Shown piece by piece: positions 7,207 through 21,944 of a DNA stretch of 57,080 bases. Both the position numbers and the translations under genes were made by a program. A model generated the notes under the pieces. That model worked only from the letters and a program-made list of their open reading frames with translations. It was not told the DNA's origin and ran no database searches. Origin of the DNA: an uncultured Candidatus Bathyarchaeia archaeon (GTDB lineage: Archaea > Thermoproteota > Bathyarchaeia > 40CM-2-53-6 > CAVXDP01); the NCBI GenBank assembly GCA_964562925.1, contig CAZLVF010000002.1, positions 29,181 to 86,260 of the forward strand. The letters run 5' to 3'. Numbering within the stretch: position 1 is the first letter of the stretch; each line of letters starts with the position of its first letter.

Positions 7207-8022
7207 ATGAGACATAACTATAATCGTTTAAAAGAAATCAGGGAGGAAAAAAGAAAATTGGTAAGAAAGTGTTCTACCTGCGGTGCAAACAACAGGGATG
7301 ATGCCAGCTTCTGCTCAGCGTGCGGTACATCACTCGTCGCTCCGCCTTCCGTCAAGCCGGTGCCCACCGTGAGAGTGGTTTCTCCGGTCACTCCCGTCGG
7401 CGCGCCTGTCAGGGTTCCGCCGCCAGGCATGTGCTTCTACCATCCGAACCTTCCAGCCATCTACGTTTGCAATAGATGCGGACGACCGATCTGCAGAGAC
7501 GATTCGAAAGCCTACCAGGATCTGGTTATGTGTCCGCAATGCTACCAGAGCGTGGTACCGATCGTAGCAGCCCCTGCATATTACCCAACAGCACCTGTCT
7601 ACCCGGCTCCACCCCCGATGCCCGAAGTCGGATTCGCTCCCCCTCCTGTAGGAGTTCCACCTGTAGCGGTATTCCCACCTGCAAGATCAACTTGGGGTTT
7701 CACCATATCTCTAATCGGAGGAATCCTAATCATAATCAACGCAGCCGCTCTGCTCTCCGCTAGCTTCTACGCCTTGTGGGCAGCCATCTTTCCATGGATA
7801 ACCTATTTTGGCCCGTTCCCGCCTTGGGTGCTCGTGGCGATCGGACTGATCCTCGGCATCATAGCCACGATAGGGAGCATTCTGATGATCCTGGGCTACG
7901 GAACGATTGGAGCCGTAGTAGTGTTCCCAGCGGCTGTGATCAGCCTAATCCTCGGTGGAGGCTTCATAGCCGGGTTCGTCCTAGGAGTCGTTGGCGGAAT
8001 CCTAGGAATGCTTGGAAGGTAA
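7207..8022 (+). CDS. Membrane-anchored zinc-finger protein and candidate RING/B-box-like E3 of the operon: N-terminal zinc ribbon plus a C-x2-H-x8-C-x2-C-x4-C-x12-C-x2-C module, a Pro-rich linker and about 4 C-terminal TM helices
   Basis: 271 aa. The zinc ribbon is CSTCGANNRDDASFCSACG and the second module is CFYHPNLPAIYVCNRCGRPICRDDSKAYQDLVMCPQC. The C-terminal 110 aa are Gly/Ile/Leu-rich hydrophobic helices. It is the first gene of the Ub/E2/E1 operon. Confidence 0.55.
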   Translation: MRHNYNRLKEIREEKRKLVRKCSTCGANNRDDASFCSACGTSLVAPPSVKPVPTVRVVSPVTPVGAPVRVPPPGMCFYHPNLPAIYVCNRCGRPICRDDSKAYQDLVMCPQCYQSVVPIVAAPAYYPTAPVYPAPPPMPEVGFAPPPVGVPPVAVFPPARSTWGFTISLIGGILIIINAAALLSASFYALWAAIFPWITYFGPFPPWVLVAIGLILGIIATIGSILMILGYGTIGAVVVFPAAVISLILGGGFIAGFVLGVVGGILGMLGR

Positions 8023-8079
8023 CGCATCCAACCTTCTCCCCCTTTTTCCCCACTTTCAGGGACGCAAGGGCGGCATAAA

Positions 8080-9633
8080 GTGTTCTACGTCAGTATGTCT
8101 AAAGACGCTATGTCTAAAGTTATCGATCACGCAAAAAGCACGCCCGAGAAAGAGGTAATAGGAGTTTTGACGGGGAGGATGGATAATCAGACCTTGATCG
8201 TTGAAGACGCTGTGAGTGGCGAGACGGTAAGGAGCGAGAAAAATGTGGTAATGCCAGGAGAAACTCTGGCAAAGATCGCGGACGATATCATAAATAGGAG
8301 GACTAAGGGAAACATAATCGGCTGGTATCATTCACATCCGGGTTATGGAGTATTCATGTCCGAAGTGGACAAGGAGACACAGTCCAAGTTGCAGCAGTTC
8401 TCTCCATATATTGTTGCACTTGTATCCGATCCGTCAACTGGAGAGTTCAAGTTTTTTACTCACGATGAAAAGTCCAAGTCTACCGAGACCCTAACCCACG
8501 ACCGAGTTCACTTCTACGGCCCTGGAGAAAAATCTGTGCCAGAAAGTTTCAGGAAGACAAAGACTGCGCCAAGGTTACCAGCGACACCTCCACCTTCAAT
8601 AGCTCCGCCTCAAAGGCCACCACTAACGAGAAGACAGGTCTACGCCTTGGTCACAGCGATGGTTCTTATTGCAGCAATAGTGACAGGTGCCCTACTCATG
8701 GTGACTATTTCTGGCCCTATCTCGCCGCTAAGAATGGATCACGGGCCTGTCACAAGCGGGACCATCGGCAATGATATCAAACTGATAGCTAATGTGAGCG
8801 GACCGGTTATGGAGGTTCTAGTCTACTACAAGCTTTCGAAAGACGCTACGTGGAAAAGTGATAATATGCTCCTGATCTCCGGCATGCGTGACACATATTC
8901 CTATACGATTCGTGGAAATGATGTAACCGGGAATCTAGACTACTATATAACAGCATCCGACAGCGCGGGCAATGAGATTTCAATTCCCACCAGTACGATC
9001 GTAATCCGGGACTTTGACGTTGACATATCTGAAAGCCAACTAACGATATATGTTGGACAGACGAAGACTACCACCGTGACAGTGAAATCAATAAACGACT
9101 TCGGTTTGCCTGTCTCTCTTAGCGCTCCTAACAGACCGCCCGGAGTCGCAAGCGTATCATTCACCCCCCCGCAGGTTGCGCCTCCGAAAAGCGGCGAAGC
9201 CACATCCACGATGAAGGTGACGCTAGTCCCGTCAGCCGAGACAGGCGAATATGAGATGGAGGTTCAAGCGAAGTATGGTCAGGTAACAAGAACTATATCC
9301 GTAACCATTCTTGTATCAGGCTTCGAGATATCAGTGTCGCCATTGTCTGTAACGATCCAGAAAGGAAAGACGGCCACATACACGGTTACGTTGGACATAA
9401 AGAAGGGTTTCACAGATACAGTCTCACTCGATGTTACAGGGCTTCCATCAAAAGGAATTGAACAAACAAGGATTCTCGTTATTAACAAGAAGATAGCTGC
9501 GCAGGGAACTACGACGCTTACAATGGAGATAGTAACAAGATCCGACGTACCCGCGGGGACTTATAACCTCAAGATAGTTGCATCCGGCGGAGAGTTGACA
9601 CAGGAGGAAAGAGTTACTTTAATTATTCAATAG
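8080..9633 (+). CDS. JAMM/MPN+ metalloisopeptidase (Rpn11-like deubiquitinase/Ub-precursor protease) fused to a TM helix and a ~300-aa extracellular beta-sandwich (Ig/CARDB-like) region
   Basis: 517 aa. The N-terminus carries EVIGVLTGR...GWYHSHPGYGVFMSEVD, which contains the JAMM motif E-x(n)-HxH-x7-S-xxD. A Pro-rich linker and a positive-inside TM helix (VYALVTAMVLIAAIVTGALLMVTI) follow. Repeated Thr/Val-rich beta-strand modules make up the rest (TYTVTLDI, TTTLTMEIV, YNLKIVASG). Confidence 0.8.
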   Translation: MFYVSMSKDAMSKVIDHAKSTPEKEVIGVLTGRMDNQTLIVEDAVSGETVRSEKNVVMPGETLAKIADDIINRRTKGNIIGWYHSHPGYGVFMSEVDKETQSKLQQFSPYIVALVSDPSTGEFKFFTHDEKSKSTETLTHDRVHFYGPGEKSVPESFRKTKTAPRLPATPPPSIAPPQRPPLTRRQVYALVTAMVLIAAIVTGALLMVTISGPISPLRMDHGPVTSGTIGNDIKLIANVSGPVMEVLVYYKLSKDATWKSDNMLLISGMRDTYSYTIRGNDVTGNLDYYITASDSAGNEISIPTSTIVIRDFDVDISESQLTIYVGQTKTTTVTVKSINDFGLPVSLSAPNRPPGVASVSFTPPQVAPPKSGEATSTMKVTLVPSAETGEYEMEVQAKYGQVTRTISVTILVSGFEISVSPLSVTIQKGKTATYTVTLDIKKGFTDTVSLDVTGLPSKGIEQTRILVINKKIAAQGTTTLTMEIVTRSDVPAGTYNLKIVASGGELTQEERVTLIIQ

Positions 9634-9668
9634 ATAGTTAACTAGGCCAATGGAGGTTGTCGAAAGAG

Positions 9669-9920
9669 ATGAAACTCTTTGTACAGGCGCCCGTAGGTCC
9701 ACAGACAGGGTTGGCTGAGATAGAGGTCATACCAGATCATACGATCGGCGAAGTGAAACAGCAGGTCTGCACTTCATTCGGCGTTGATCCAACGACGGTA
9801 TCCCTGATGTATGGTGGAGTCGTCCTCGACGAGAGTATGACAATTTCAAGAGCAGGCATACCGGAGAACGCGCAGCTTGCACTCATGCCATACAATATCA
9901 TCGGCGGTCAGATGGTGTGA
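9669..9920 (+). CDS. Ubiquitin-like beta-grasp modifier precursor (GG followed by a 3-residue C-terminal extension)
   Basis: 83 aa from the ATG at 9669; the ORF track starts at a TTG at 9657. The sequence MKLFVQAPVGPQTGLAEIEVIPDHTIGEVKQQV...NIIGGQMV aligns with ubiquitin (MQIFVKTLTGKTITLEV...LRLRGG). GGAGG lies 12 nt upstream. Confidence 0.75.
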   Translation: MKLFVQAPVGPQTGLAEIEVIPDHTIGEVKQQVCTSFGVDPTTVSLMYGGVVLDESMTISRAGIPENAQLALMPYNIIGGQMV

Positions 9921-10507
9921 ATCTACCGCTCCTCTATGAAGAAAGAAGATTTGTAAACCACCAGTTCCCGATGGTTACCCCCCTCGCCGACCCTCCAACC
10001 CTATATGAGGGACTCCTCCGCTGCGAGAAAGGCCGAGTGAAAGACCTAGCTGAGAAGAAGATCTGGCCGTTCACTGAATATGTGAACTGGCACCGTTTCA
10101 GGCTTGAACTTTTGAATGAGTATCCGCTGAAACCGCCGGCCGTTACTTGGCTCACCGAGGTCTCTCATCCGAACATCGTTCCAAATATTCCTGGAGCTGT
10201 ATGCGTCTCGGTTCTGGGAGAGGCTTGGCGCCCGGATCTGAAGCTTATCTCGGTCATAAACTCACTCTACTATCTTCTATCGGACCCAAACCCCGACAAC
10301 GTCTTCGACCATCCGAAGTGTATAGAAGCTGCAAAGGTCTGTAGAAGTCACGGCTTCCCAGATAGAGGGATGCGAAAGAAGACTCCGGAGCCCGAGGATA
10401 TAATGAGGTTCAACATTATCCCGATCCCTGGTTCAGCTGCTGCCTCACCAGATACTCTCCTCACTTTTAGGATACCCGGTCGAATGCGCCAAGAGGCAAC
10501 TCGATGA
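9917..10507 (+). CDS. Ubiquitin-conjugating enzyme E2 (UBC fold)
   Basis: 196 aa. The HPN motif and catalytic Cys are present (VSHPNIVPNIPGAVCVSVLGEAWRPDLKLISVINSLYYLLSDPNPDN). The GTG start overlaps the Ub stop by 4 nt. Confidence 0.75.
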   Translation: MNLPLLYEERRFVNHQFPMVTPLADPPTLYEGLLRCEKGRVKDLAEKKIWPFTEYVNWHRFRLELLNEYPLKPPAVTWLTEVSHPNIVPNIPGAVCVSVLGEAWRPDLKLISVINSLYYLLSDPNPDNVFDHPKCIEAAKVCRSHGFPDRGMRKKTPEPEDIMRFNIIPIPGSAAASPDTLLTFRIPGRMRQEATR

Positions 10508-11757
10508 AGGTTACGGCGGAGATCCCGCAGTATAAAGAAGTTGAAGTCAAAGCCTCCAAGAATATGAAGGTGCGGAACCTAAAGAGAGAGATATGTAAAA
10601 AGCTCGGGATCAATGAACAGCTTACGTCTCTGCTTCTACAGGGCAGGCCACTTCGAGAGAACAGCACTATCAAAGAGATCGGTCTTCAATCTAGAAAGCT
10701 AACTGTAGACTATATGTGGGCTAGGCAGCTGCTCCTTTGGGGTAGCAATGGCCAGACAGCGATCGAGAACGCGCAGGTCTTTCTTGCGGGCGCAGGCGCT
10801 ATAGGAAACGAGGTTGCAAAGAACCTTGCCATGCTAGGTGTTCAAAGACTTGTGATCGTTGATTATGATCTTGTTGAAACCTCAAACCTCAGCCGAACCG
10901 TTTTTTATGAGAAGAGCGATGTTGGGAAAGCGAAGGCGGAGGTTCTGTCAAGAAAGCTGAAGAGGAACTATCCGTACGTTCATCCAACTTTCCACCGCTG
11001 TAGAGTCGAGGGCGTCCCAGCTCAAGTGTATTTGAACTCTGATGTTATTGTATCAGGTCTTGACAACGTTCCATCAAGGATGCATCTCGCCTCAATCTCC
11101 CGGAGATATCAGATCCCCATGGTAGACGCTGGAGCAATAGGCTACGAGGCCAGAGTCCAAGCGTATGTTCCACCTGAGGATCCCTGTCCGATATGTCCTC
11201 TCCCTCCGGGAAACTATGGGCAGATGGCAGGTCTCAGAAACCCCTGTACCGCACCCCTAGAAGAGATGAGGATCCCTTCTCTGCCTACATCGATGTCTCT
11301 GGTATCGTCGATACAGACTCAGGAGGTAGTGAAGATAATATTGGGATACAAGACCTTCCTAAAGGAGAAGAGGTGGCCATCAGAAATAGGAGAGCCTCTA
11401 AAGGGGGCGCTTCTAGTTGATCTAAGGTTCAACAGATACTCTAGGGTTGAACTGAATAGGAATCCAAGATGTATGGTATGTGGAAAAGACGGCGTTGCAA
11501 AGAATATTGTAAGCCGATATGAAGTTTCACTTTCAAAGACTGGAAACTCGACGTCTAGACTCCAGAAAAGAGTTAGCGAACTCTTAGATGCCAAACCGAC
11601 AGAGATGCTAATGTTCAAGGAGGACAAAAAGAAACTCGTACCAGTTGAGGTTGGGAAAGAATTAACTGAGTATGATCTAGAGAAAGGAAAATTTGTTCAC
11701 ATAGTGATGAAGACGGCTGACGACAAGTATTCTGAGGCTGTTGTCAAACTCAAGTGA
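10504..11757 (+). CDS. Ubiquitin-activating enzyme E1-like (ThiF/MoeB/UBA fold) with an N-terminal ubiquitin-like domain and a C-terminal ubiquitin-fold domain
   Basis: 417 aa. The Rossmann GxGxxG motif is FLAGAGAIGNEVAKNLAMLGV. Zn-binding pairs are CPICP and CMVCG. The N-terminal 70 aa and C-terminal 90 aa have a beta-grasp-like pattern. The ATGA start overlaps the E2 stop. Confidence 0.8.
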   Translation: MKVTAEIPQYKEVEVKASKNMKVRNLKREICKKLGINEQLTSLLLQGRPLRENSTIKEIGLQSRKLTVDYMWARQLLLWGSNGQTAIENAQVFLAGAGAIGNEVAKNLAMLGVQRLVIVDYDLVETSNLSRTVFYEKSDVGKAKAEVLSRKLKRNYPYVHPTFHRCRVEGVPAQVYLNSDVIVSGLDNVPSRMHLASISRRYQIPMVDAGAIGYEARVQAYVPPEDPCPICPLPPGNYGQMAGLRNPCTAPLEEMRIPSLPTSMSLVSSIQTQEVVKIILGYKTFLKEKRWPSEIGEPLKGALLVDLRFNRYSRVELNRNPRCMVCGKDGVAKNIVSRYEVSLSKTGNSTSRLQKRVSELLDAKPTEMLMFKEDKKKLVPVEVGKELTEYDLEKGKFVHIVMKTADDKYSEAVVKLK

Positions 11758-11825: not shown

Positions 11826-13937
11826 CTATTCAAGCCTTCCCGCTTTTTTCAACCTCTCAGTGGATGCCTTAACCTCTTCAGGCGTAATCCCTAGTTCGCT
11901 TGCGGCCTTTTTCAGAGATATCACGCCAGAATGTTCAAGTATGTAGGAGTAGACTCTTTCGTCCAAATCCGATGCCTCTGGCGATCTTCTTGAGCCGCAT
12001 CTCTGACAGAAGTTCTCAGATTCAGAGATCGGCGCACCGCAGCTTGCGCATCGGCCAACGTGGTCTATCACAACTTCCCCGACTACCGGTTTGGTTCGTG
12101 GCGGGCGGGAAACTCGGCGTCTAAGTCTTGTGCTAAACCATGCAAAAGGATCAAGCCCGAGCTTAAACTTCATAAGACCAATGATGCTCAGAAGAGATAT
12201 TCCAATAATAGTTGCTACGATGCCACCTAGGAAAAGTGGACTGAGAACCGTCACGGTGGCATTTGCACGGTCTTCTTCGTAACGTAGATCGCCAGAGTAG
12301 ACAACCTCAACTTTCACCGTGTCAGCAGAAATTACTTCGAATGAGATTGACGCTATCCCTTCGTTATCTGTCACGAGTTCTTGATTTATCCTTCTGCTGC
12401 CGGCTGCTACTGTGAAGTCCAATGTTGCGCTTTCAATCGGGTTCCCGGACAAGTCTTTAAGCATGGCTTTGACCACAAGGTTGTCTCCTTGAATGACAAA
12501 GCCTTGCGCGAAGAGCGTCAATGTTGTGCGAATGCCTTCGATAGGAAGTGTTCCAGACCATTCGGCACCTTCAAAATTTCTTTCTCCTACATACGTGATC
12601 CTCAGTTGAACTGATCCCTTTCTTCCCGGCACGTATTGCATAGAGGCAAAACCGTCCTCGTTTGTCAAGGAGCTTCCGAGCTTCTCATTGTCAGCATAGA
12701 ACTCGACCACTTGTCCCGGCACGGGGTTGCCCATCTCATCAGATAGTTGAGCCGTGATGTTCAGACTTTGCCCAACAACGGTTGTTTCTGGGATACTTGA
12801 TGAAAGCTTAGTCGGGATAGGGAGGATTCTGATTCTCGTCGTTGTGGTTGCGGAATCATAGGTAGCAGACCCTTCGTAAAGGGCTTTCACTTGATATTCG
12901 CCCACATTCAAGGTTCCAGAATATGCCAGCTTTGCTTGGCCCGACGAGTCAGTCAAGCCTGTTCCGATCTCTGTTTGCTCAGATCCGGCTAGGATGTAAA
13001 ACCTTACAGGTTGGTCTGGTAGAGGGTCTCCGTTCGCATCAACCAGCGTCACAGCCGCCTCGATAGGATATCTGTACTTTACTGTTTCTGGAACGTCGAG
13101 TTTGAGGTTGGCCCCAAGCTTGGTGACAGTAAGGGTTATAGAAGCTTTCTCTACGTGAGAGGTTCCCCTGAAATCTGAATATGATATTTCAAACGTGAGT
13201 ACATGCGGCCCCATAGAAGCAGTTGAAGGAACAGACACAGAGAAATCTGTTCGTGCGGTCTCGCTTGGGGATACATCGCCAATAGTCTGCGTCCACGGGT
13301 TAACAATCAATCCGGAAGAGTCTACTAGTGAGACAGAAGCTGAATACATTCTGTCGTTTCCACCATTCTGGAATGAGATAGTGAGCGTCGAAGGTTTCCT
13401 TGCGCCGAGTTGAACGGTTGAGATCGACTGATACCAGCCTGCAACGTACAATTTTACGACGAGAACCCTGAACTCCCTAACATCCTCTAGAACCACTGTC
13501 GTCTGATTCTTCCAGTACAGCTCGGCGCGCATGAGATACTCGTCCGGCCCCCTCAAGTTCGCAACGACGATCTCGTGCCAGGTCGAACGTCCAGGCCTAC
13601 ACTCCCACGGCGAAGAGAACTCGTCGACAACGATAACTCCGTCGCCGTACACCTTGAAGAAGAAGAGTGACGCGCCCGACGGATCTCTCCGCTCTAGGTT
13701 CAACACCGTGAAATTGAGGTTTTCCGTATCTCCGTCATAGATCTTCGCGACATAAATCGTCTCTAGAATTCTAGCTCCCAATGCTCCCTGGGCTTCGATA
13801 TGAAGCGGGTTGGTAAAAAAGAACGGTCCCGCCATGAGAGCTAATAGAAAGCAGAATATGAGGCAGTCACGCCCTATCTTCGTAGACTTTCCCTCTACTC
13901 CACAAGTTAACGTATGACTCACTCTTGAAGTCGGCAT
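11826..13937 (-). CDS. Receptor-like single-pass (type I-like) membrane protein: signal anchor, ~520-aa extracellular Ig-like/CARDB-like repeats, a TM helix and a cytoplasmic zinc ribbon plus winged-helix domain
   Basis: 703 aa. The N-terminal hydrophobic anchor is LIFCFLLALMAGPFFF. The second TM is LFLGGIVATIIGISLLSIIGLMKF, followed by RLRRRVSRPPRTK, CASCGAPISESENFCQRCG and a wHTH-like tail (YSYILEHSGVISLKKAASELGITPEEVKASTERLKKAGRLE). It is convergent with the E1 gene. Confidence 0.6.
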   Translation of the reverse strand: MPTSRVSHTLTCGVEGKSTKIGRDCLIFCFLLALMAGPFFFTNPLHIEAQGALGARILETIYVAKIYDGDTENLNFTVLNLERRDPSGASLFFFKVYGDGVIVVDEFSSPWECRPGRSTWHEIVVANLRGPDEYLMRAELYWKNQTTVVLEDVREFRVLVVKLYVAGWYQSISTVQLGARKPSTLTISFQNGGNDRMYSASVSLVDSSGLIVNPWTQTIGDVSPSETARTDFSVSVPSTASMGPHVLTFEISYSDFRGTSHVEKASITLTVTKLGANLKLDVPETVKYRYPIEAAVTLVDANGDPLPDQPVRFYILAGSEQTEIGTGLTDSSGQAKLAYSGTLNVGEYQVKALYEGSATYDSATTTTRIRILPIPTKLSSSIPETTVVGQSLNITAQLSDEMGNPVPGQVVEFYADNEKLGSSLTNEDGFASMQYVPGRKGSVQLRITYVGERNFEGAEWSGTLPIEGIRTTLTLFAQGFVIQGDNLVVKAMLKDLSGNPIESATLDFTVAAGSRRINQELVTDNEGIASISFEVISADTVKVEVVYSGDLRYEEDRANATVTVLSPLFLGGIVATIIGISLLSIIGLMKFKLGLDPFAWFSTRLRRRVSRPPRTKPVVGEVVIDHVGRCASCGAPISESENFCQRCGSRRSPEASDLDERVYSYILEHSGVISLKKAASELGITPEEVKASTERLKKAGRLE

Positions 13938-14404
13938 CTCGAAATATATTGCTATCTCCTACAATAATCATGTCAGAACTGTCATGTCGAAACTATGGAA
14001 GCCAACCGTCAGAAACTGAAATGTACTATGTGAAACGTTTCTGGTCAAGAAATTCACATTATTCAATAGTGAGATGGACTTAGAGTTGGGCTGGCATCAG
14101 CCTATAAACCAACAGGATCTCATACGTCTCTGACTCTAATGGAACATCTCCAAGACGATAAATGAGTCGTTAGTGATCGAGGCCATGGAGATCTTAGTTC
14201 ACCGCACTTTGGCGAAATGAAAACTCTCATTTATTCCATCTATTTACAGCGGACACAAGCTACCGAGTGTGCTTATGATCAAAGCTCCCAGAGGGACATG
14301 ACTTAAAGGGCTGCGACATGGATAGAAGGATATTCTACGGCGATGCGAACAGGGAAAGCGGTTTCCTCAGGTATGATTCTTTATTGCGTCAAGAGTGAAC
14401 GATT

Positions 14405-14692
14405 ATGGGAATGACCAGTTACTACAAGGGAAGAGCCCGAGAGTATCGTGTCCTCCAGGCGCTTCGCCGCGATGGTTGGTTCTGCACTAGAAGCGCCGCC
14501 TCACATGGCCCTGTCGACATATTTGCGGGAAAAGATGGTCGAACCTTAATGATACAGGTGAAGAGCGGCAGGGGTAGAATCGCTGAGGAGGATAGAAAAA
14601 CGCTAATTGAATGGGCGAAAGCGTTCAATGGAATAGCTCAAGTATGGTGGTTTAGAAAGGGACGAATGCCCGAGATAGAAACCATCGCCTAG
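14405..14692 (+). CDS. hjc: Holliday-junction resolvase Hjc-like PD-(D/E)xK nuclease, short form
   Basis: 95 aa. It aligns with Pyrococcus Hjc ([47 protein letters not shown]) through EYRVLQALRRDGWFCTRSAASHGPVDIFAGKDGRTLMIQVKS. The catalytic E, D and EVK-equivalent (QVK) positions are present. Confidence 0.65.
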   Translation: MGMTSYYKGRAREYRVLQALRRDGWFCTRSAASHGPVDIFAGKDGRTLMIQVKSGRGRIAEEDRKTLIEWAKAFNGIAQVWWFRKGRMPEIETIA

Positions 14693-15080
14693 TGTGACGG
14701 AGCTCGAAAACGTGTTAGGAAAAACTTATGCCTCATGAGCATGATTCTGTGCACTTGTGAGAAGAGAGCTACATCTTCTGTTGCAAGCAGCAAGATAACC
14801 CCTCGCTTCTTAGCCACGGTTAGTATGAGACATTGTTGATGGTGGTATCACTGCAAAAGAAGACAACTTTGCTTGAACCACTTGAAGTCAAGCATGCGAT
14901 CCGAAACAGTCGGAGCGTACGGACCCGGGATCGGTATCAAGAGCTACAGAATAGTCAGAGAACCTGCGAACGTTCAAATCTACTTGAGATTTGATCTGAC
15001 TGGGATAGATTGCTAGCTTTTGGTATCATCTAGTATCGTTTACTTTCATTATTCTCTGTTGCTTATGGCCGCAGCTTCAC

Positions 15081-15293
15081 ATGATATTCTACCTGATGTC
15101 TTGTACGGTGACATGTGTGATGTTAGAAGGGAAGACCAGAATCATACTTCCGCCCAGGGGTGGAAAAACAGGTATCTTGTATATTCCTGCTGACATCGTG
15201 AAAGACTCCTCTTTTCCATTTCAAGCTAACGAAAGGGTGCTTGTTCGAATAGTGGGGAAGAAGCTAGTAGTGGAGAGGGAGGGTGAGGGTTGA
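15081..15293 (+). CDS. Small hypothetical protein upstream of the crenactin cluster (possibly an AbrB/swapped-hairpin-like fold)
   Basis: 70 aa from the ORF track only; the call rests on its position. The sequence includes TRIILPPRGGKTGILYIPADIV. Confidence 0.2.
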   Translation: MIFYLMSCTVTCVMLEGKTRIILPPRGGKTGILYIPADIVKDSSFPFQANERVLVRIVGKKLVVEREGEG

Positions 15294-15832
15294 AGAGGAT
15301 AAGAAGAATTTCAGGGCAGGTAGCGTGGCGAGCGAGAAAAGTTGGAAATCTCCGTCAGGACTATTGGAAGAGGCTCCTTGCGGATATCGGCAAGCTGGCA
15401 GTCTTTCGTGGGACGAAAGGAGGTTATTACCGTTTCTCGGGCGGCAGGTTGTATCTGATAGGAAACCCGATCGATAATGATGGCTATACCACGTTTACGG
15501 TGGGGTTTAAGGGGTCAAAACCCTCTTTTGTTGACCTCCTCCTTCAGGCGTCAACTGGAGACTTTGAGATATGTGACATCTCATTCTTCTTGAGAGATCA
15601 GATGATTGACTTCGAGAACCTACTGAAGAATCTAAGATTCCGTTGTAACGATCTTAGGGAAGAGGCTAATGGAAATTTCTCCGCAAAAATAGCAGACGAC
15701 CTCAAAGTAGCTCGACTCTCCGGCTATCCAAACATGAATATCATCAAAATATCAAGATCGTTTACGAGGAGAGGCTTGGAACCAAGTCGATTCCTTGATA
15801 GATTTATCGAGATGAACTTGAATGGGAAATGA
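15290..15832 (+). CDS. Hypothetical protein immediately upstream of and overlapping the crenactin start (occupies the arcadin-1 position)
   Basis: 180 aa. It has an ATGA overlap with the upstream ORF and an 11-nt overlap with crenactin, which suggests translational coupling. No recognisable motif was found. Confidence 0.4.
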   Translation: MKRIRRISGQVAWRARKVGNLRQDYWKRLLADIGKLAVFRGTKGGYYRFSGGRLYLIGNPIDNDGYTTFTVGFKGSKPSFVDLLLQASTGDFEICDISFFLRDQMIDFENLLKNLRFRCNDLREEANGNFSAKIADDLKVARLSGYPNMNIIKISRSFTRRGLEPSRFLDRFIEMNLNGK

Positions 15833-17108
15833 AGCAAGAAGATCATCGTACAAGCAGGAATACACTTTTGGAATGGACTATGGAACGGGGGACTTCAAGT
15901 ATGGACCGATATCATGCGGCGAGAAACCGGAGATCATAGAGAATCGAGGATACTTTCCCGACAGAGAATCGATCATGTACACCACATTCGAGAATCCTAG
16001 GGAGATAATAGTTGGTAGAGATGTTCCGCTCTATCTTCAAGCCAGCGATGACCTTTCAACTAGACTAGTGTACCCGATGAAGAATGGAGTCATCGGTAAG
16101 AATGATCTCCAGGCTTGGAGCGTCGTCCGAGAGATATCGAAGTATGGGATAGAGACATTCAAACCTGCAGACTCGGATTTCCAAGGTTTCTACCTAGTTT
16201 CCTCGCTTTCATCGGTCTCCCCAAGGTACATGTATGAAAAACTCTTCGAGGCTTATGGAGAGATCAACAGAGAACAGAAGCTGATCAAAGCTGCAACCGT
16301 GATACAGCAACCTCTCGCGGTTGCGATCGCGCATAAAACGACAACCTGCGTCGTTATCGAGTCAGGCCACGGAAACACCCAGATCTGCCCAATCTCAAGG
16401 TACCCTGTCCGAAACGCCATCGTAGCAATAAATCGAGGAGGCGGAGACTCAAACGCATTGACCGCCGAGATTCTTAAGGACCAGGGCTACGGGGACCTCG
16501 CCAGAGAAGAAGCGATCGTCAGGAAGGTGAAGGAGAGCATCGGCCTAGTTCCCATAGACTTGGAGAAGGCTGTGGCTTCTGCCAAGAGGAACCCGAAAAA
16601 GTTCAGGGCTAGGTTCAAAGTGCCTGGAACACGCGTTTCGATAGAGTTTGAGGATAACTCTTGGACGCGTTTCCTAATTGGAGAATACGTCTTCAACCCG
16701 AACCATGAGCTGTTCCAAAGCTACTTCTCCAGAGGTATGGGAAGACCTAAAGACGTTAAGGTCGGTGATACAACCTTCAAGGGCACCTTGGATTTTGGCG
16801 ACGCAGTTGTCGAAGCTGTTGAACGCTGTCCCATAGAGCTCCAGCCACACCTCTACAGGCAGATCCTACTTTCAGGAGGCAACTTCAGCTGGAAACCGCC
16901 AGAACAGCTGAAGGACGTGGCAACCGACTCCGCAAACAAGATGCGGATACTTCTGAGGAAGAAGGGTGTAACAAACGTCAAGAGCCTCATGACAGAATCG
17001 CCTCAGTTCTCAGTCTGGCGTGGATGTATAATCTATGGCTACGCGGTGCCAGAGGACTATGAATGGAGCTGGGACCGTATGGAAGGTTGGAACATGCTTG
17101 GCGACTGA
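15822..17108 (+). CDS. Crenactin (archaeal actin homologue; actin/Hsp70 ATPase fold)
   Basis: 428 aa. The phosphate-1 motif is YTFGMDYGTGDFKYGP. Blocks matching Pyrobaculum crenactin as I recall it: VIQQPLAVAIA, VVIESGHGNTQICPIS, AINRGGG, LTAEILKDQGYGDLAREE, IGLVP, WTRFLIGEYVFNPNHE, LLSGGNFSWKPP and FSVWRGCIIYGYAVP. Confidence 0.85.
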   Translation: MGNEARRSSYKQEYTFGMDYGTGDFKYGPISCGEKPEIIENRGYFPDRESIMYTTFENPREIIVGRDVPLYLQASDDLSTRLVYPMKNGVIGKNDLQAWSVVREISKYGIETFKPADSDFQGFYLVSSLSSVSPRYMYEKLFEAYGEINREQKLIKAATVIQQPLAVAIAHKTTTCVVIESGHGNTQICPISRYPVRNAIVAINRGGGDSNALTAEILKDQGYGDLAREEAIVRKVKESIGLVPIDLEKAVASAKRNPKKFRARFKVPGTRVSIEFEDNSWTRFLIGEYVFNPNHELFQSYFSRGMGRPKDVKVGDTTFKGTLDFGDAVVEAVERCPIELQPHLYRQILLSGGNFSWKPPEQLKDVATDSANKMRILLRKKGVTNVKSLMTESPQFSVWRGCIIYGYAVPEDYEWSWDRMEGWNMLGD

Positions 17109-17154
17109 AAGTTCTCTTATAGAACGAGTGAAAGGATACTTCATCACAAAAGGG

Positions 17155-17751
17155 ATGCAGGACGCTGGAACCCTCAGCAAAAACCACTCTGAGAGCAACT
17201 GCCTCATATTCTCGGGGACAGGAGTTCTGTCCGCAGTAAGAGTTCTCAGAGAAGAAGAGTTATCCACCAGAAACTCGGTTTTGGAAGCAGTCCTATCATC
17301 AGCCACCCTGATTAACCGTGTTAACCAAGTCTACCTAGCCTTACCAAGGCTGGTTTCGTCAACCATCGAAAGCAAAATCATGGAAGAGTATGGAATCGGG
17401 CTCATCGTCTACGATCAGAAGAACGTGGAGGAAGTTGTGGCGCCAAGGTACTTCCAAACTGCAAGCCAACATACAATTGTTGCCTCGGAGAACGAAGACT
17501 CTCATAGAGTCTTGGTCGAAGAGATAGACACGTTGAGAGGCAGGTTAAGATCTCTAGAAGAGGCTGTAGAATCGTTGAGGTCAGAAGTCGAATATCTTAG
17601 ATCTTGGAAGCCTCAAGCCCCGCGCGAAGAGACAGTGACATCCTCATCGGTTTCGCCGAGGTTTGAGGGAGCGCCCTCATTTCTCAGAGACAACCCTTGG
17701 ATAGAGGTGCTCTCAAGAAGAGGCCGCGAGGGTGAGAGGCTTGTCAGCTGA
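17155..17751 (+). CDS. Hypothetical coiled-coil protein directly downstream of crenactin (arcadin-2 position). The start is uncertain: the ORF track extends to a TTG at 17035 and an ATG lies at 17155
   Basis: A heptad coiled coil (IDTLRGRLRSLEEAVESLRSEVEYLRS) is followed by an acidic/Ser-rich tail. Its position and size fit an actin-binding arcadin-like partner. Confidence 0.35.
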   Translation: MQDAGTLSKNHSESNCLIFSGTGVLSAVRVLREEELSTRNSVLEAVLSSATLINRVNQVYLALPRLVSSTIESKIMEEYGIGLIVYDQKNVEEVVAPRYFQTASQHTIVASENEDSHRVLVEEIDTLRGRLRSLEEAVESLRSEVEYLRSWKPQAPREETVTSSSVSPRFEGAPSFLRDNPWIEVLSRRGREGERLVS

Positions 17752-18028
17752 GAAGGTGAGCAACCTATTTCACATTGAGATAAGATCCTTCAATATAGTG
17801 ATCGATCTAGAAGATCTTTTCACACCGGAGGCGACTATTGAACAGTTCATAAAACTTCACGGTTTCAGCCCCAAGCCCCCGCGCTATAGAGTTGTGAACG
17901 TCGAGACCGTTGCATGCTCCGAAGATGGACAACCTGTCCTAGTTACGGAATGTGGAAGATGCTCGAGGTTCGTTCGAAGGTACCAGGGAAGTATATGCTG
18001 TCGTCGCACACGATACATAGAAAAGTAG
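17732..18028 (+). CDS. Small hypothetical Cys-rich protein
   Basis: 98 aa. It overlaps the end of the preceding gene by 20 nt. The C-terminus is CGRCSRF...CCRRTRY. Confidence 0.25.
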   Translation: MRGLSAEKVSNLFHIEIRSFNIVIDLEDLFTPEATIEQFIKLHGFSPKPPRYRVVNVETVACSEDGQPVLVTECGRCSRFVRRYQGSICCRRTRYIEK

Positions 18029-18113
18029 TAATCTAACATTGTCTAATTTCTATTGAACAGTGCGCAACGCTTCTTTGGCCATCACTTCAGGTCGTTGAAG
18101 CTTCCGTTCACGG

Positions 18114-18968
18114 TTGAGGGTGACAAAGTTGAAGGTTGGAGCGCATATGTCGATCTCGGGCTCCATCGATCTATCGGTTGACAGAGCAAAAGAGAGGGCT
18201 TGTGATACCTTCCAGATATTCACACGAAACCCAAGAGGATGGAAGTTCAAGAAACTCACTAGGGAGGATGTTAAGAAGTTCAAGGAAAAACTCTCGAACT
18301 CCGGGATTAGCCCGGTTGTTGCACATATGCCGTATCTTCCCAACTTGGCCTCCCCTACCAAACCGATCCATAAGAGATCCGTCAGGACGCTTATCTCAGA
18401 AGTTGAGAGGTGCCAACTACTCGGCATTCCATATCTCGTAACTCACCTAGGAAGCCACATGGGAAAAGGATTTGAGATTGGCCAAGAGAGGATAGTCGAA
18501 GCGCTAAACGCAGCTCTACCTATTCCAGTCGAGAATGTAATGATACTATTGGAGAACACGGCGGGAACAAGAAACAGCATGGGAACATTCTTTGAAGACA
18601 TAGCAAAAATCCTTGATGGAGTCATCGCAAAAGAGAAAGTTGGCGTCTGTTTCGACACAAGCCATGCTTTCGCTGCTGGTTATGAACTGAGAACAGAGAG
18701 CTCGCTGAACGAGACCTTCGAGCGTTTCGAAAGCGTTGTGGGAGTTGACCGACTGAAGGTCATACACCTCAACGACTCCAAGGCTGGCGTTGGATCGCAC
18801 ATCGACAGACATGAACATATTGGAATGGGATATATCGGCGAAAAAGGGTTCAAGGTCATCTTGAAACATCACCTCTTCCAGGGACTTCCTTTGATCTTGG
18901 AGACGCCGATAGATAGCCGCCGAGACGATCTTGGAAACGTCAGAAAAGTCAGAGAACTAGCTTCTTAA
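18114..18968 (+). CDS. nfo: Endonuclease IV (AP endonuclease, TIM-barrel family)
   Basis: 284 aa. The motifs VGAHMSISG, AHMPYLPNLASP, THLGSH, LENTAG and a HID-x-H metal site are present. Confidence 0.85.
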   Translation: MRVTKLKVGAHMSISGSIDLSVDRAKERACDTFQIFTRNPRGWKFKKLTREDVKKFKEKLSNSGISPVVAHMPYLPNLASPTKPIHKRSVRTLISEVERCQLLGIPYLVTHLGSHMGKGFEIGQERIVEALNAALPIPVENVMILLENTAGTRNSMGTFFEDIAKILDGVIAKEKVGVCFDTSHAFAAGYELRTESSLNETFERFESVVGVDRLKVIHLNDSKAGVGSHIDRHEHIGMGYIGEKGFKVILKHHLFQGLPLILETPIDSRRDDLGNVRKVRELAS

Positions 18969-19508: not shown

Positions 19509-19817
19509 TTAGATGAGTTCGATCTCAATAAATACGTCGTCAGGGGTCTTTATTCTCATAAGTCTCTTCAAGAACCTTTCATTCGGATCCACGTCGATCA
19601 ACCGTTTGTGAATCCTCATCTCCCATTTGTCCCAGGTATGGGTTCCTTCGCCGCAGGGACTCTTCCTCGTTGGGACAACAAGCCTCTTTGTAGGCAACGG
19701 AACCGGGCCGCGAAGCCTCACTCCAGCTTTATCAGCTATCTTCGTAATCTCATCGCAGATCGAGTTCAGATCCCTGGTATCTATGCTTGAAAGTTTTATC
19801 CGTGCTCTGTTGACCAT
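19509..19817 (-). CDS. rps10: Ribosomal protein S10 (uS10)
   Basis: 102 aa. The sequence [20 protein letters not shown]...[20 protein letters not shown] is a classical uS10. It lies immediately downstream of EF-1alpha, as in archaeal str-like clusters. Confidence 0.9.
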
Positions 19818-19900
19818 CCAAGTTTACTCTCCACGCTAGGGCGGCGAAGCAGACACTAGGAAGAGGGGGATGCTTAAAAGCCTTGGGAAAGGAGGCTGAG

Positions 19901-21202
19901 TTATGCTTTCTCTGTTATCTGCTTGACGACACCCACAGCAACGGTCATGCCCATATCTCTTATCGCGAATCTCCCGAGTTGCGGAATCTCGGAGAAAGGT
20001 TCGACAACCAAGGGGGCGATTGGCCTGATCTTAACTACTGCGCTGTCCCCAGTCTTGAGGAAGGCAGGTTTCTCCTCGATAACCTGGCCTGTTCTGGAAT
20101 CGATCTTCTGTGTCAGCTCGGTGAAGGTTGCTGCTACCGTTGCGGTGTGAGCGTGCATGACCGGGGTGTAACCTTGGGCGATGGCTGTCGGGTGGTATAT
20201 CACGATCACCTGGCCGATGAACTCCTTTGCAACCGTCGCTGGCGAGTCGGGGTGACCTACAACGTCGCCTCTATGAACATCGGTCTTCGTTACCCCTCTG
20301 ACGTTGAATCCTATGTTGTCTCCGGGGACCGCCTGCGGGATTCTCACGTGATGAGTTTCAATCGATTTGCATTCTGCTTCGATCTTTGAGGGCATGAAGA
20401 TGATCTTGTCCCCTTCCTTGAGGATACCTGTCTCAACTCTGCCAACTGGGACCGTCCCAACACCAGTTATCGAATACACATCCTGGACCGGAAGCCTCAA
20501 GGGTTTCTCAGTGGGCTTCGGTGGGAGTACGAAGCTGTCGAGGACCTCGTAGAGGGTAGGCCCCTTATACCATGTTGTCTTGTCGCTCTTGTTGTAGAGG
20601 TTGTCTCCGGTCCATCCTGAGACCGGGATGAAGTTTATCTTTGAAGGATCGTAGCCCACAACCTTAAGCAGTTCCTCAAGTTCTTTCTTGCATTCTTGGA
20701 ATCGTTCTTGAGAGAAGTTGACGGTTGCATCATCCATCTTCGTTATGGCGACTGCGATCTGCCCTACACCCAGCGTCCTCGCTAGGTAGGCGTGTTCCCT
20801 AGCCTGTCCACCAGGCCCTACAGCCACCTCAAACTCCCCCTTCTTCGCCGATACGACGAGCACAGCACAGTCTGCCTGACTCGTGCCTGTTATCATGTTC
20901 TTTATGAAGTCTCTATGTCCTGGAGCGTCAATTATCGTGTAGAAGATCTTTGGCGTCTCAAACTTCTGGAAGGACAGGTCTATGGTGACGCCTCTTTCTC
21001 TCTCTTCCTTTAGACTATCGAGGACCCATGCAAACTTGAACGTGTCTCCAGCACCAGTCTTCTCGGACTCTTTGGCATACTCGTCAATCGTCTTCTTATC
21101 CACAAAACCCGCGTCTAGCATCAGGTGACCGGTCATCGTGCTTTTTCCATGGTCAACGTGTCCGATTACTATGAGGTTGAGATGAGGTTTCTGTGAACTC
21201 AT
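19901..21202 (-). CDS. tuf: Translation elongation factor 1-alpha (aEF-1A)
   Basis: 433 aa. The G1-G4 motifs are GHVDHGKST, DAPGH and NKMD. The sequence is unmistakable. Confidence 0.95.
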   Translation of the reverse strand: MSSQKPHLNLIVIGHVDHGKSTMTGHLMLDAGFVDKKTIDEYAKESEKTGAGDTFKFAWVLDSLKEERERGVTIDLSFQKFETPKIFYTIIDAPGHRDFIKNMITGTSQADCAVLVVSAKKGEFEVAVGPGGQAREHAYLARTLGVGQIAVAITKMDDATVNFSQERFQECKKELEELLKVVGYDPSKINFIPVSGWTGDNLYNKSDKTTWYKGPTLYEVLDSFVLPPKPTEKPLRLPVQDVYSITGVGTVPVGRVETGILKEGDKIIFMPSKIEAECKSIETHHVRIPQAVPGDNIGFNVRGVTKTDVHRGDVVGHPDSPATVAKEFIGQVIVIYHPTAIAQGYTPVMHAHTATVAATFTELTQKIDSRTGQVIEEKPAFLKTGDSAVVKIRPIAPLVVEPFSEIPQLGRFAIRDMGMTVAVGVVKQITEKA

Positions 21203-21341
21203 TCTTTTTCATTCCCAATTTGATGGTTCGTACTTCTAAAAGACAACCCATATTTAAGTTCCACGATGATCTGCCCCGCTTGAAGATCGGATCGATAAGC
21301 GTGGAGGGAATCTTGTCGTCGTCTTCGGTTAAGGAAAGGCC

Positions 21342-21944
21342 TTAACGAGAGGCCAGAGCGATTCTTTCCATCTCATCTCGCTTTCTTATGGCGAAGCTTC
21401 TACTATCTCTAGATGCGCAGAGTATTATCTCATCAGCCAGGCATTCATCTATGGTCTTAGGATTGCCAACTGAGGCCTGCCTCGCTCCATCGGCGATAAA
21501 CCGCAACGTGAGATCTACTCTCCGCTGTGGTGAGATATCCACTGAGATTGGATAAACGACTCCACCGTAGGCTATCCGCGTAACCTCCTCGCAGGGCGCC
21601 GAGTTCTCTATCGCTTTCACCAGCACCTCAAGAGGGTTTTTTCCAGTTTTCAAACTGATTATCTCAAGAGCGTTCCTAACGACGCTGATCACCTTCGCCT
21701 TCTTCCCGCCAGATCTTCCATGCCGCATCATGTTGTTTGCTAGTCTTTCAACAATGTTCACAGCAGACTTCCTAAACCTCTGATGCTCATGCCTTCCTCC
21801 GCTATGAGGTATCAGGGCGGGCTTGAGAGAGATGTACTGCTTTATCCCAGCATCTTCGACAGTAATTCCATCACAACGCCATTTTCCAAAGATCTTAACG
21901 TCTATGGGCTTCTTCGATTCTCTGCTCATCGGTCTCTGCCTCAT
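21342..21944 (-). CDS. rps7: Ribosomal protein S7 (uS7)
   Basis: 200 aa. The segment NNMMRHGRSGGKKAKVISVVRNALEII...YGGVVYPISVDISPQRRVDLTLR is present. Confidence 0.9.
   Translation of the reverse strand: MRQRPMSRESKKPIDVKIFGKWRCDGITVEDAGIKQYISLKPALIPHSGGRHEHQRFRKSAVNIVERLANNMMRHGRSGGKKAKVISVVRNALEIISLKTGKNPLEVLVKAIENSAPCEEVTRIAYGGVVYPISVDISPQRRVDLTLRFIADGARQASVGNPKTIDECLADEIILCASRDSRSFAIRKRDEMERIALASR

Follow-up and report, generated by a model that had tools for sequence, protein, structure and literature searches.

A five-gene crenactin operon of Bathyarchaeia as a probable lineage-specific variant of the arcade actin-cytoskeleton module

We have identified a compact cluster of five genes around an archaeal actin in a 57,080-nucleotide stretch of DNA from an uncultured Candidatus Bathyarchaeia archaeon (contig CAZLVF010000002.1, positions 29,181 to 86,260; hereafter the window). 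The cluster is probably a five-gene operon and a lineage-specific variant of the arcade actin-cytoskeleton module. Judged by their sequences, its third gene encodes crenactin and its fourth a distant orthologue of arcadin-2 with a predicted groove-binding tail, and its three remaining genes, which we call orf57, orf180 and orf98, may encode new crenactin partners. The core of the cluster is the known arcade module, not a new system, and our results refine that system without overturning any current view. No earlier description was found in the literature of the three accessory families, of their replacing arcadin-1, -3 and -4, or of the nuclease-like core fold predicted here for arcadin-2.

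Among non-Asgard proteins, crenactin stands closest to eukaryotic actin, and to our knowledge almost nothing is known of its regulation outside one cultured genus. The arcade cluster of Thermoproteales was reportedly described by Ettema and colleagues in 2011. In the reference contigs used here it reads, as published, arcadin-1 (PF18653), crenactin, arcadin-2, arcadin-3 and arcadin-4 (SMC_N). These contigs, from Pyrobaculum calidifontis, T. tenax, Vulcanisaeta moutnovskia, Thermofilum pendens and Thermocladium, were found by rebuilding the P. calidifontis crenactin from its PDB alignment and then searching a protein database. The comparison set was obtained with a crenactin query against one genome per GTDB species, and comprises 75 loci with 45–87% identity. 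The nearest (80–87% crenactin identity) are metagenome-assembled genomes (MAGs) of Bathyarchaeia; the remainder, at 52–71%, come from other Bathyarchaeia and from Brockarchaeota, Culexmicrobium, Wolframiiraptor-like, Geocrenenecus and Caldarchaeales/Terraquivivens MAGs, and one locus (L075) is a partial crenactin match at 45%.

The operon and its crenactin–arcadin-2 core

All five genes lie on the + strand in the order orf57 (15120–15293), orf180 (15290–15832), crenactin (15822–17108), arcadin-2 (17098–17751) and orf98 (17732–18028). The initial annotation of this DNA had listed open reading frames (ORFs) of 70, 180, 428, 238 and 98 amino acids (aa), and all are present on that strand, although two of the starts require correction. 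With the corrected starts, successive genes overlap by 4, 11, 11 and 20 nucleotides (nt), so that the overlap of the 180-aa frame with the start of crenactin, which had also been noted, amounts to 11 nt. The common strand and these overlaps argue for one operon, and the arrangement fits a single translationally coupled transcription unit running from about 15120 to 18028; coupling of this kind would in turn suggest matched stoichiometry of the products. Pairwise comparison with the closest relatives (52–87% aa identity) gave ratios of nonsynonymous to synonymous substitution rates (dN/dS) of 0.03–0.17 for all five genes, with dS saturated or nearly so. All five are real genes under purifying selection.

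The 428-aa protein is, on its database matches, crenactin, as had been proposed. It aligns with the P. calidifontis crenactin structures (PDB 4cj7, 5ly3 and 5mw1) over residues 9–424 against 7–428 with an E-value of 8.3e-109, whereas the next-best actins, which are eukaryotic, reach only ~1e-10. It matches the Pfam Actin family at E 2e-16 and the NCBIfam crenactin profile NF053560 at E 3.4e-169 (563.2 bits; profile positions 1–421 of 422). In the PDB alignment the catalytic glutamine Q164 is conserved (QQPLAVAIA here, PQPLAVAIA there), as are the equivalents of the polymerisation-interface residues V339/E340 (PIELQ against SVEIQ); the roles of these residues are taken from PMC5173319. Crenactin dN/dS is 0.03–0.05. 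By homology to the P. calidifontis experiments, the protein would be expected to form F-actin-like filaments. In five 'MFD' MAGs of the comparison set (L066, L068, L069, L073 and L074) the crenactin frame is split and the tblastn matches are partial, likely through assembly indel errors rather than as pseudogenes.

The gene directly downstream of crenactin had been presented as a coiled-coil ORF without recognisable similarity and hence as a possible new partner. It is instead identified by profile comparison as an orthologue of arcadin-2. Aligned as a 70-member family against four Thermoproteales arcadin-2 proteins, it gave an hhalign probability of 99.4% (E 3.3e-21) over 188 columns, which span the whole protein; against P. 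calidifontis arcadin-2 alone the probability was 96% (E 4.7e-9). The NCBIfam Rkd2/arcadin-2 profile (NF053561) matches the window protein at E 5.5e-5 (22.9 bits) and 19 of 33 diverse relatives, with a best E of 6.7e-11, and the Vulcanisaeta arcadin-2 finds window positions 17254–17724 by tblastn (E 3.7e-10). The scores characterise it as a distant orthologue rather than a close equivalog. A database search with the arcadin-2 alignment returned only 11 proteins and no named Thermoproteales sequences, probably because coiled-coil words saturated the candidate list. The flanking proteins had been called much smaller than their arcade counterparts, which does not hold for this one: it has 217 aa and P. 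calidifontis arcadin-2 has 203. An arcadin-2 homologue adjoins crenactin in 73 of the 75 loci by tblastn, on the 3' side everywhere except in Caldarchaeales, where it lies 5', and in four of the five Thermoproteales reference loci.

The start of arcadin-2 is placed at the TTG at 17098, which yields the 217-aa protein and an 11-nt overlap with the crenactin stop. The longest frame (17035–17751, 238 aa) overlaps the 3' end of crenactin by 74 nt, as had been described, but this larger overlap is an artefact of taking the longest ORF as the gene. The common arcadin-2 start in relatives falls between −10 and +15, counted from the last letter of the crenactin stop codon, and in many its frame is closed until 3–12 nt around that stop; the ATG at 17035 was therefore rejected. 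That ATG and its bounding stop, read by eye, both lie inside conserved crenactin codons (the IIYGYA stretch). The internal ATG at 17155 was likewise rejected as a start: a protein beginning there would lack both the conserved first helix and the near-invariant G19. A public protein (P0001) is 100% identical to the 217-aa form.

The architecture of arcadin-2 was predicted with an AlphaFold2 model for which the window protein was aligned with 11 homologues from the database, at a mean predicted local distance difference test score (pLDDT) of 74. The model has a confident α/β domain (aa 1–115; 17098–17442), a disordered stretch, a long helix (aa 132–169; 17491–17604), a disordered linker and a terminal helix. 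The central helix, a predicted coiled coil that bears out that part of the initial description, reaches a pLDDT of 93 between low-confidence segments (121–132 and 173–190, below 50). Pfam and PDB sequence searches with the protein matched coiled-coil proteins only. In the model the N-terminal domain has a PD-(D/E)XK nuclease-like fold; no conserved active-site, basic or catalytic motif was found in it among 33 diverse sequences.

In P. calidifontis, the peptide of residues 187–203 of arcadin-2 has been crystallised in the hydrophobic groove of crenactin (Izoré et al. 2016; PMC5173319); this peptide alone depolymerises crenactin filaments, and its binding depends on the tryptophan, while the full-length protein binds crenactin with a dissociation constant (Kd) of 31 nM in a 1:1 complex and depolymerises filaments in bulk in vitro (PMC5173319). 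In the window, APSFLRDNPWIEVLSRRG (aa 192–209; 17671–17724) aligns with that peptide, RGGIGENEWVKILRSKR; the corresponding stretches are DNPWIEVLSRRG here and ENEWVKILRSKR in the crystal. P193, N199, W201 and L205 are invariant among the 33 diverse sequences, and the motif recurs in the Vulcanisaeta arcadin-2 (LPDFLSNNPWVDVLRKKG). Translated in all six frames, the entire window contains the motif once. In the model the tail forms helices at 194–197 and 200–216 behind the low-pLDDT linker. We therefore predict from its sequence that arcadin-2 carries a C-terminal tryptophan helix that would bind the crenactin groove.

Two side observations concern this motif. The arcadin-2 of Thermofilum pendens (L080, 7333–8082) carries two tandem copies, DLPSFARDNPWLRILSSGG and ELPSFARDNPWLDFLSRRRGG, and one molecule could engage two crenactin subunits. 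Within crenactin itself, aa ~283–293 (~16668–16700) read DNSWTRFLIGE, which resembles the DNPWIEVLSRR of the arcadin-2 tail, and the equivalent stretch of one locus (L055) matched the tail-motif pattern, perhaps by coincidence.

Three unnamed families beside the core

The conserved core of orf57 begins at the ATG at 15120 ('MLEG...') and comprises 57 aa; the longest ORF, 15081–15293, is the one of 70 aa. The gene stands directly 5' of crenactin or of orf180 in 27 loci in addition to the window. The alignment of 16 sequences contains 20 invariant columns, and dN/dS is 0.06–0.17. The window protein has no Pfam or NCBIfam match; seven of the 16 relatives weakly match Pfam MazE_antitoxin, a SpoVT/AbrB-type family, with a best E of 0.058, and an AbrB-like fold is plausible from these sequences.

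The 180-aa product of orf180 is always encoded directly 5' of crenactin, the position of arcadin-1 in Thermoproteales. Its family was recovered in 9 loci by tblastn, in 25 by a two-round hidden Markov model (HMM) search and in 32 by blastp clustering, and reaches Brockarchaeota, Wolframiiraptor-like and Geocrenenecus MAGs. The 41 database homologues are all 'hypothetical' and lack a Pfam domain. The structure model (pLDDT 85.7; predicted template modelling score 0.82) contains two S1-H1-S2..S5-H2 repeats and suggests a two-repeat α/β protein with TBP-like topology, and fold comparison of the model found no close structural relative. Some homologues carry C-terminal additions. Three (L005 5288–6013, L007 5291–6013 and L008 5298–5993) have an extension of ~50 aa that looks like a ribbon-helix-helix (RHH) domain, and the one of L008 matches RHH_1 at E 0.0023, which is below the cut-off. 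Others from Brockarchaeota and Wolframiiraptor-like MAGs (L028, L031, L033, L038–L051 and L072) end in short basic amphipathic tails such as LKKLLRWGK, SERLRSLLRP and ILSKIMGWRR, which are reminiscent of helices that target membranes or bind partners; a tail of this kind is absent from the window protein.

The third family, orf98, lies directly 3' of arcadin-2, the position of arcadin-3 in Thermoproteales, in 37–38 loci from Bathyarchaeia, Culexmicrobium and some 'Nitrososphaerota' MAGs, and none of the 75 loci has it anywhere but beside arcadin-2. Its 98-aa product has, as annotated, seven cysteines, with a cysteine-rich C-terminal half; a single cysteine is invariant, and one subgroup has lost the rest. 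Identity averages 51% per alignment column, 10 columns are invariant, and dN/dS is 0.07–0.08. Searches with the protein gave no credible Pfam match (three chance-level hits, E 0.017–0.021, fell below the cut-off) and no NCBIfam or PDB sequence match. The family comprises only 10 representative clusters among 1.84 billion proteins.

Comparison of the flanking ORFs with arcadin-1 and arcadin-2, which had been proposed as a check, produced the arcadin-2 match on the downstream side and none to arcadin-1. The upstream ORFs have no Pfam match to arcadin-1 (PF18653) at E<=0.1, their PDB profile search did not return the arcadin-1 structure 5LY5, and neither the window nor any of the 75 loci gave a match to the arcadin-1 HMM. 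The hhalign probabilities against arcadin-1 are 1.9% for orf57, 0.1% for orf180, whose model also showed no fold match to 5LY5, and <1% for orf98. Against arcadin-3, orf98 scores 0.3%, and tblastn with four arcadin-3 proteins gave no match in the cluster; read by eye, orf98 is β-rich and cysteine-rich, while arcadin-3 is helical and cysteine-poor (0–2 Cys). Three arcadin-4 proteins found no window match with E<0.88 by tblastn, and among the 75 loci arcadin-4 is present only in L052. Assignment of orf57, orf180 or orf98 to arcadin-1 or -3 was consequently rejected on Pfam, NCBIfam, PDB-profile and hhalign evidence (all <2%) and, for orf180, on fold; tblastn queries with arcadin-1, -3 and -4 over the entire window likewise connected none of the three families with these proteins. 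These same searches (Pfam, NCBIfam and PDB profiles, with fold for orf180) found no similarity of the three to known actin-binding proteins, so that the initial description of flanking proteins without recognisable similarity stands for them.

One result that had been named as counting against the proposal was a lack of conservation of the flanking ORFs beside crenactin in related genomes, and linkage was found for every one: the loci with synteny to crenactin number 73 of 75 for arcadin-2, 37–38 for orf98, as many as 32 for the orf180 family and 27 for orf57. Together with the layout, this bears out the tight, arcade-like, same-strand cluster that had been proposed. Apart from the window, only six loci, all of Bathyarchaeia (L002, L003, L004, L010, L020 and L066), have the complete five-gene form. 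Elsewhere the three accessory genes are patchily distributed: in Caldarchaeales arcadin-2 and crenactin stand without them, orf57 and orf180 are missing from some Bathyarchaeia, and orf98 is missing from Brockarchaeota.

This patchiness raises the alternative that crenactin and arcadin-2 are the sole functional module, and that orf57, orf180 and orf98 are unrelated passengers, or orf57 an AbrB-type regulator of the operon. The absence of similarity to any known actin-binding protein speaks in its favour, and small AbrB-like proteins are usually transcription factors. Set against this, the three genes keep strictly conserved positions, on the same strand and abutting or overlapping crenactin or arcadin-2, across crenactins that share only ~60% identity; all three are under strong purifying selection, with dN/dS of 0.06–0.17 in comparisons with relatives of 52–84% identity; the tiny orf98 family keeps its exclusive place beside arcadin-2; and the start-stop overlaps suggest coupled translation and matched stoichiometry. 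We regard this alternative as the less probable account, though one that retains some weight, and consider that orf57, orf180 and orf98 may be new crenactin partners. As short, well-conserved, unnamed families they are the obvious next candidates for archaeal actin-binding proteins.

Relation to known systems and possible mechanism

The cluster shares with the Thermoproteales arcade a single strand on which crenactin is followed directly by arcadin-2 (the genes overlap in T. tenax, L077, as well), an orthologous crenactin at ~50% identity, an orthologous arcadin-2 that agrees in its three-part architecture and its tail motif, and two small flanking genes, one where arcadin-1 and one where arcadin-3 would stand. 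It differs in that no arcadin-1, arcadin-3 or SMC-like arcadin-4 is detectable in the 57-kb window, and in that the three unrelated families occupy those positions. The tail reads DNPW here, as in Vulcanisaeta and Thermofilum, and ENEW in Pyrobaculum. The arcade cluster is variable even within Thermoproteales: in V. moutnovskia, arcadin-1 (PF18653; L079 3295–3639, − strand) lies ~2.4 kb 5' of crenactin and is read from the other strand, its usual place being taken by an unrelated 110-aa ORF, and the crenactin gene of Thermocladium (L081) has no arcadin next to it.

The same two-gene core of crenactin and arcadin-2 is found in Caldarchaeales (Aigarchaeota), Culexarchaeia and Brockarchaeota. In two Culexmicrobium loci (L008 and L025) orf98 is present as well, and the first of these contains orf180 in addition; the Brockarchaeota have the orf180 family; and the Caldarchaeales/Terraquivivens loci (L053–L059, L064 and L065) show an inverted order, with arcadin-2 directly 5' of crenactin and without orf57, orf180 or orf98. 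Surveys of archaeal clusters of orthologous genes (arCOGs) have already listed arcadin-1 and -2 outside Thermoproteales, for Caldarchaeales and Culexarchaeia. What Bathyarchaeia, Brockarchaeota, Culexarchaeia, Caldarchaeales and Thermoproteales have in common as the conserved core is the crenactin–arcadin-2 pair with its predicted groove-binding tail, and arcadin-1, -3 and -4 lie outside that core.

On the reading we favour and consider likely, a lineage-specific arcade variant, the arcadin-2 tail would occupy the crenactin groove that is used by the D-loop, by extension from P. calidifontis (PMC5173319). Its occupancy would block or reverse polymerisation, either by sequestering monomers or by capping and depolymerising filaments. 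The N-terminal domain, dimerised through the coiled coil, might tie the tail to another component of the cell, most likely DNA, and orf57, orf180 and orf98 would act as lineage-specific accessory subunits or regulators in the places of the non-homologous arcadin-1, -3 and -4. The eukaryotic monomer sequesterers and WH2-type groove binders (thymosin β4, WH2 and cofilin) bind the actin fold at this site too and influence polymerisation in the way that arcadin-2 is reported to do (PMC5173319), with no sequence or fold relationship to it, and the arcadin-2 helix is oriented opposite to that of thymosin β4 (PMC5173319).

Several points weigh against this reading. The scores of 563.2 bits for crenactin and 22.9 bits for arcadin-2 fall below the equivalog cut-offs of NF053560 (630) and, by far, of NF053561 (290), although both cut-offs appear to be calibrated on sequences close to the proteins characterised in Thermoproteales. 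The C-terminal helix is modelled with only moderate confidence (pLDDT 51–67), and several residues of the tail are not those of the crystallised peptide (NPW in place of NEW), so that its affinity may differ. Crenactin binding and depolymerisation by the window arcadin-2 are extrapolated from P. calidifontis, the DNA-binding role suggested for its N-terminal domain derives from the modelled fold alone, and conserved gene order is the only evidence that links orf57, orf180 and orf98 to crenactin.

A second alternative is a DNA-segregation machine similar to ParMRC, the type II plasmid partition system of ParM, ParR and parC. Arcadin-2 would then be mainly an adaptor of the ParR type rather than a sequesterer of monomers; as a coiled-coil dimer it would have its N-terminal domain on DNA and its tail in the groove at the growing filament end. 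The other small proteins, an AbrB-like orf57 and a TBP-like orf180 that in some lineages is fused to an RHH domain, would likewise be associated with DNA. Both systems set a filament former of the actin fold beside a small dimeric groove-binding protein (PMC5173319), and the C-terminal helix of ParR enters the ParM groove in the same orientation as that of arcadin-2 (PMC5173319). The PD-(D/E)XK fold is typical of DNA-binding enzymes, arcadin-2 has been localised between segregated nucleoids and arcadin-4 is SMC/Rad50-like according to the literature, and the weak RHH_1 match of the L008 orf180 homologue (E 0.0023), the weak MazE_antitoxin matches of orf57 relatives and the TBP-like topology modelled for orf180 point the same way. 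ParR, however, is an RHH protein unrelated to arcadin-2, and the actin here belongs to the crenactin/eukaryotic-actin branch at a chromosomal locus near EF-1α and ribosomal protein genes. There are no parC-like, iterated centromere-like repeats 5' of or within the cluster: the 430-nt gap 5' of the operon contains no tRNA, Rfam family or iterated repeats, a repeat search found no repeat family in 14600–15350, and tandem repeats in 13900–18200 are absent except for a 14-mer in 1.9 copies. Bulk depolymerisation and a 1:1 complex at 31 nM fit a sequesterer (PMC5173319), the nuclease-like domain is devoid of a conserved basic or catalytic motif, and the assignments to DNA binding all come from weak fold or profile evidence. 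We consider a ParMRC-like machine improbable.

We also give a low probability to the combined proposal that at least one of orf57, orf180 and orf98 is a true, hitherto undescribed binder of crenactin or arcadin-2 and, in addition, that arcadin-2 is a ParR-like adaptor with an inactivated PD-(D/E)XK domain on DNA. If it were true, Bathyarchaeia and related TACK archaea would possess in their crenactin module an actin-driven machine for chromosome segregation or nucleoid positioning, with a lineage-specific set of DNA-associated accessory proteins. The nuclease-like core fold modelled for arcadin-2 is a testable hint of a link between actin filaments and DNA.

The last alternative, that a lone actin gene is flanked here by mere chance frames or artefacts of annotation, can be dismissed: the N-terminal extension of the 238-aa frame from the ATG at 17035 is indeed an artefact, but the reading is refuted by dN/dS of 0.06–0.17 for the four flanking genes and by protein conservation in 27–73 other genomes, and the confident model of orf180 also opposes it.

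Genomic surroundings

The neighbours of the operon include housekeeping genes, which indicates a chromosomal locus rather than a mobile element. Reading the translations by eye placed ribosomal protein S10, EF-1α and S7 at 19509–21944 (−), and a family B DNA polymerase is encoded at 41137–43500 (+). Immediately downstream, 18114–18968 (+) encodes a TIM barrel resembling AP endonuclease 2 and xylose isomerase. Upstream, 430 nt 5' of the operon, lies a gene for a 95-aa Hjc-like PD-(D/E)XK protein (14405–14692, +; Pfam Hjc E 1e-8), which is kept near the cluster only in the five closest loci; sequence comparison found no relation between this protein and the N-terminal domain of arcadin-2.

Further upstream is a eukaryote-type ubiquitin module at 7207–11757 (+). 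It comprises a Zn-ribbon/B-box protein (7207–8022), a JAB/MPN protease with a C-terminal extension (8080–9633), an E2 of the UQ_con family (9917–10507) and a ubiquitin–ThiF (E1) fusion (10504–11757). Between this module and the crenactin cluster lies a large, divergently oriented Ig-repeat gene (11826–13937, −). Its 703-aa product combines Big_1/Big_3 Ig-like repeats, a hydrophobic, apparently transmembrane segment and a zinc ribbon with a weak C-terminal winged-helix match (HTH_24, E 0.024), an unusual combination of domains. The initial annotation had singled out the proximity of crenactin to a ubiquitin system; the module is real, but the co-occurrence of the two was reported in 2015 in single-cell genomes of MCG/Bathyarchaeota (PMC4571567).

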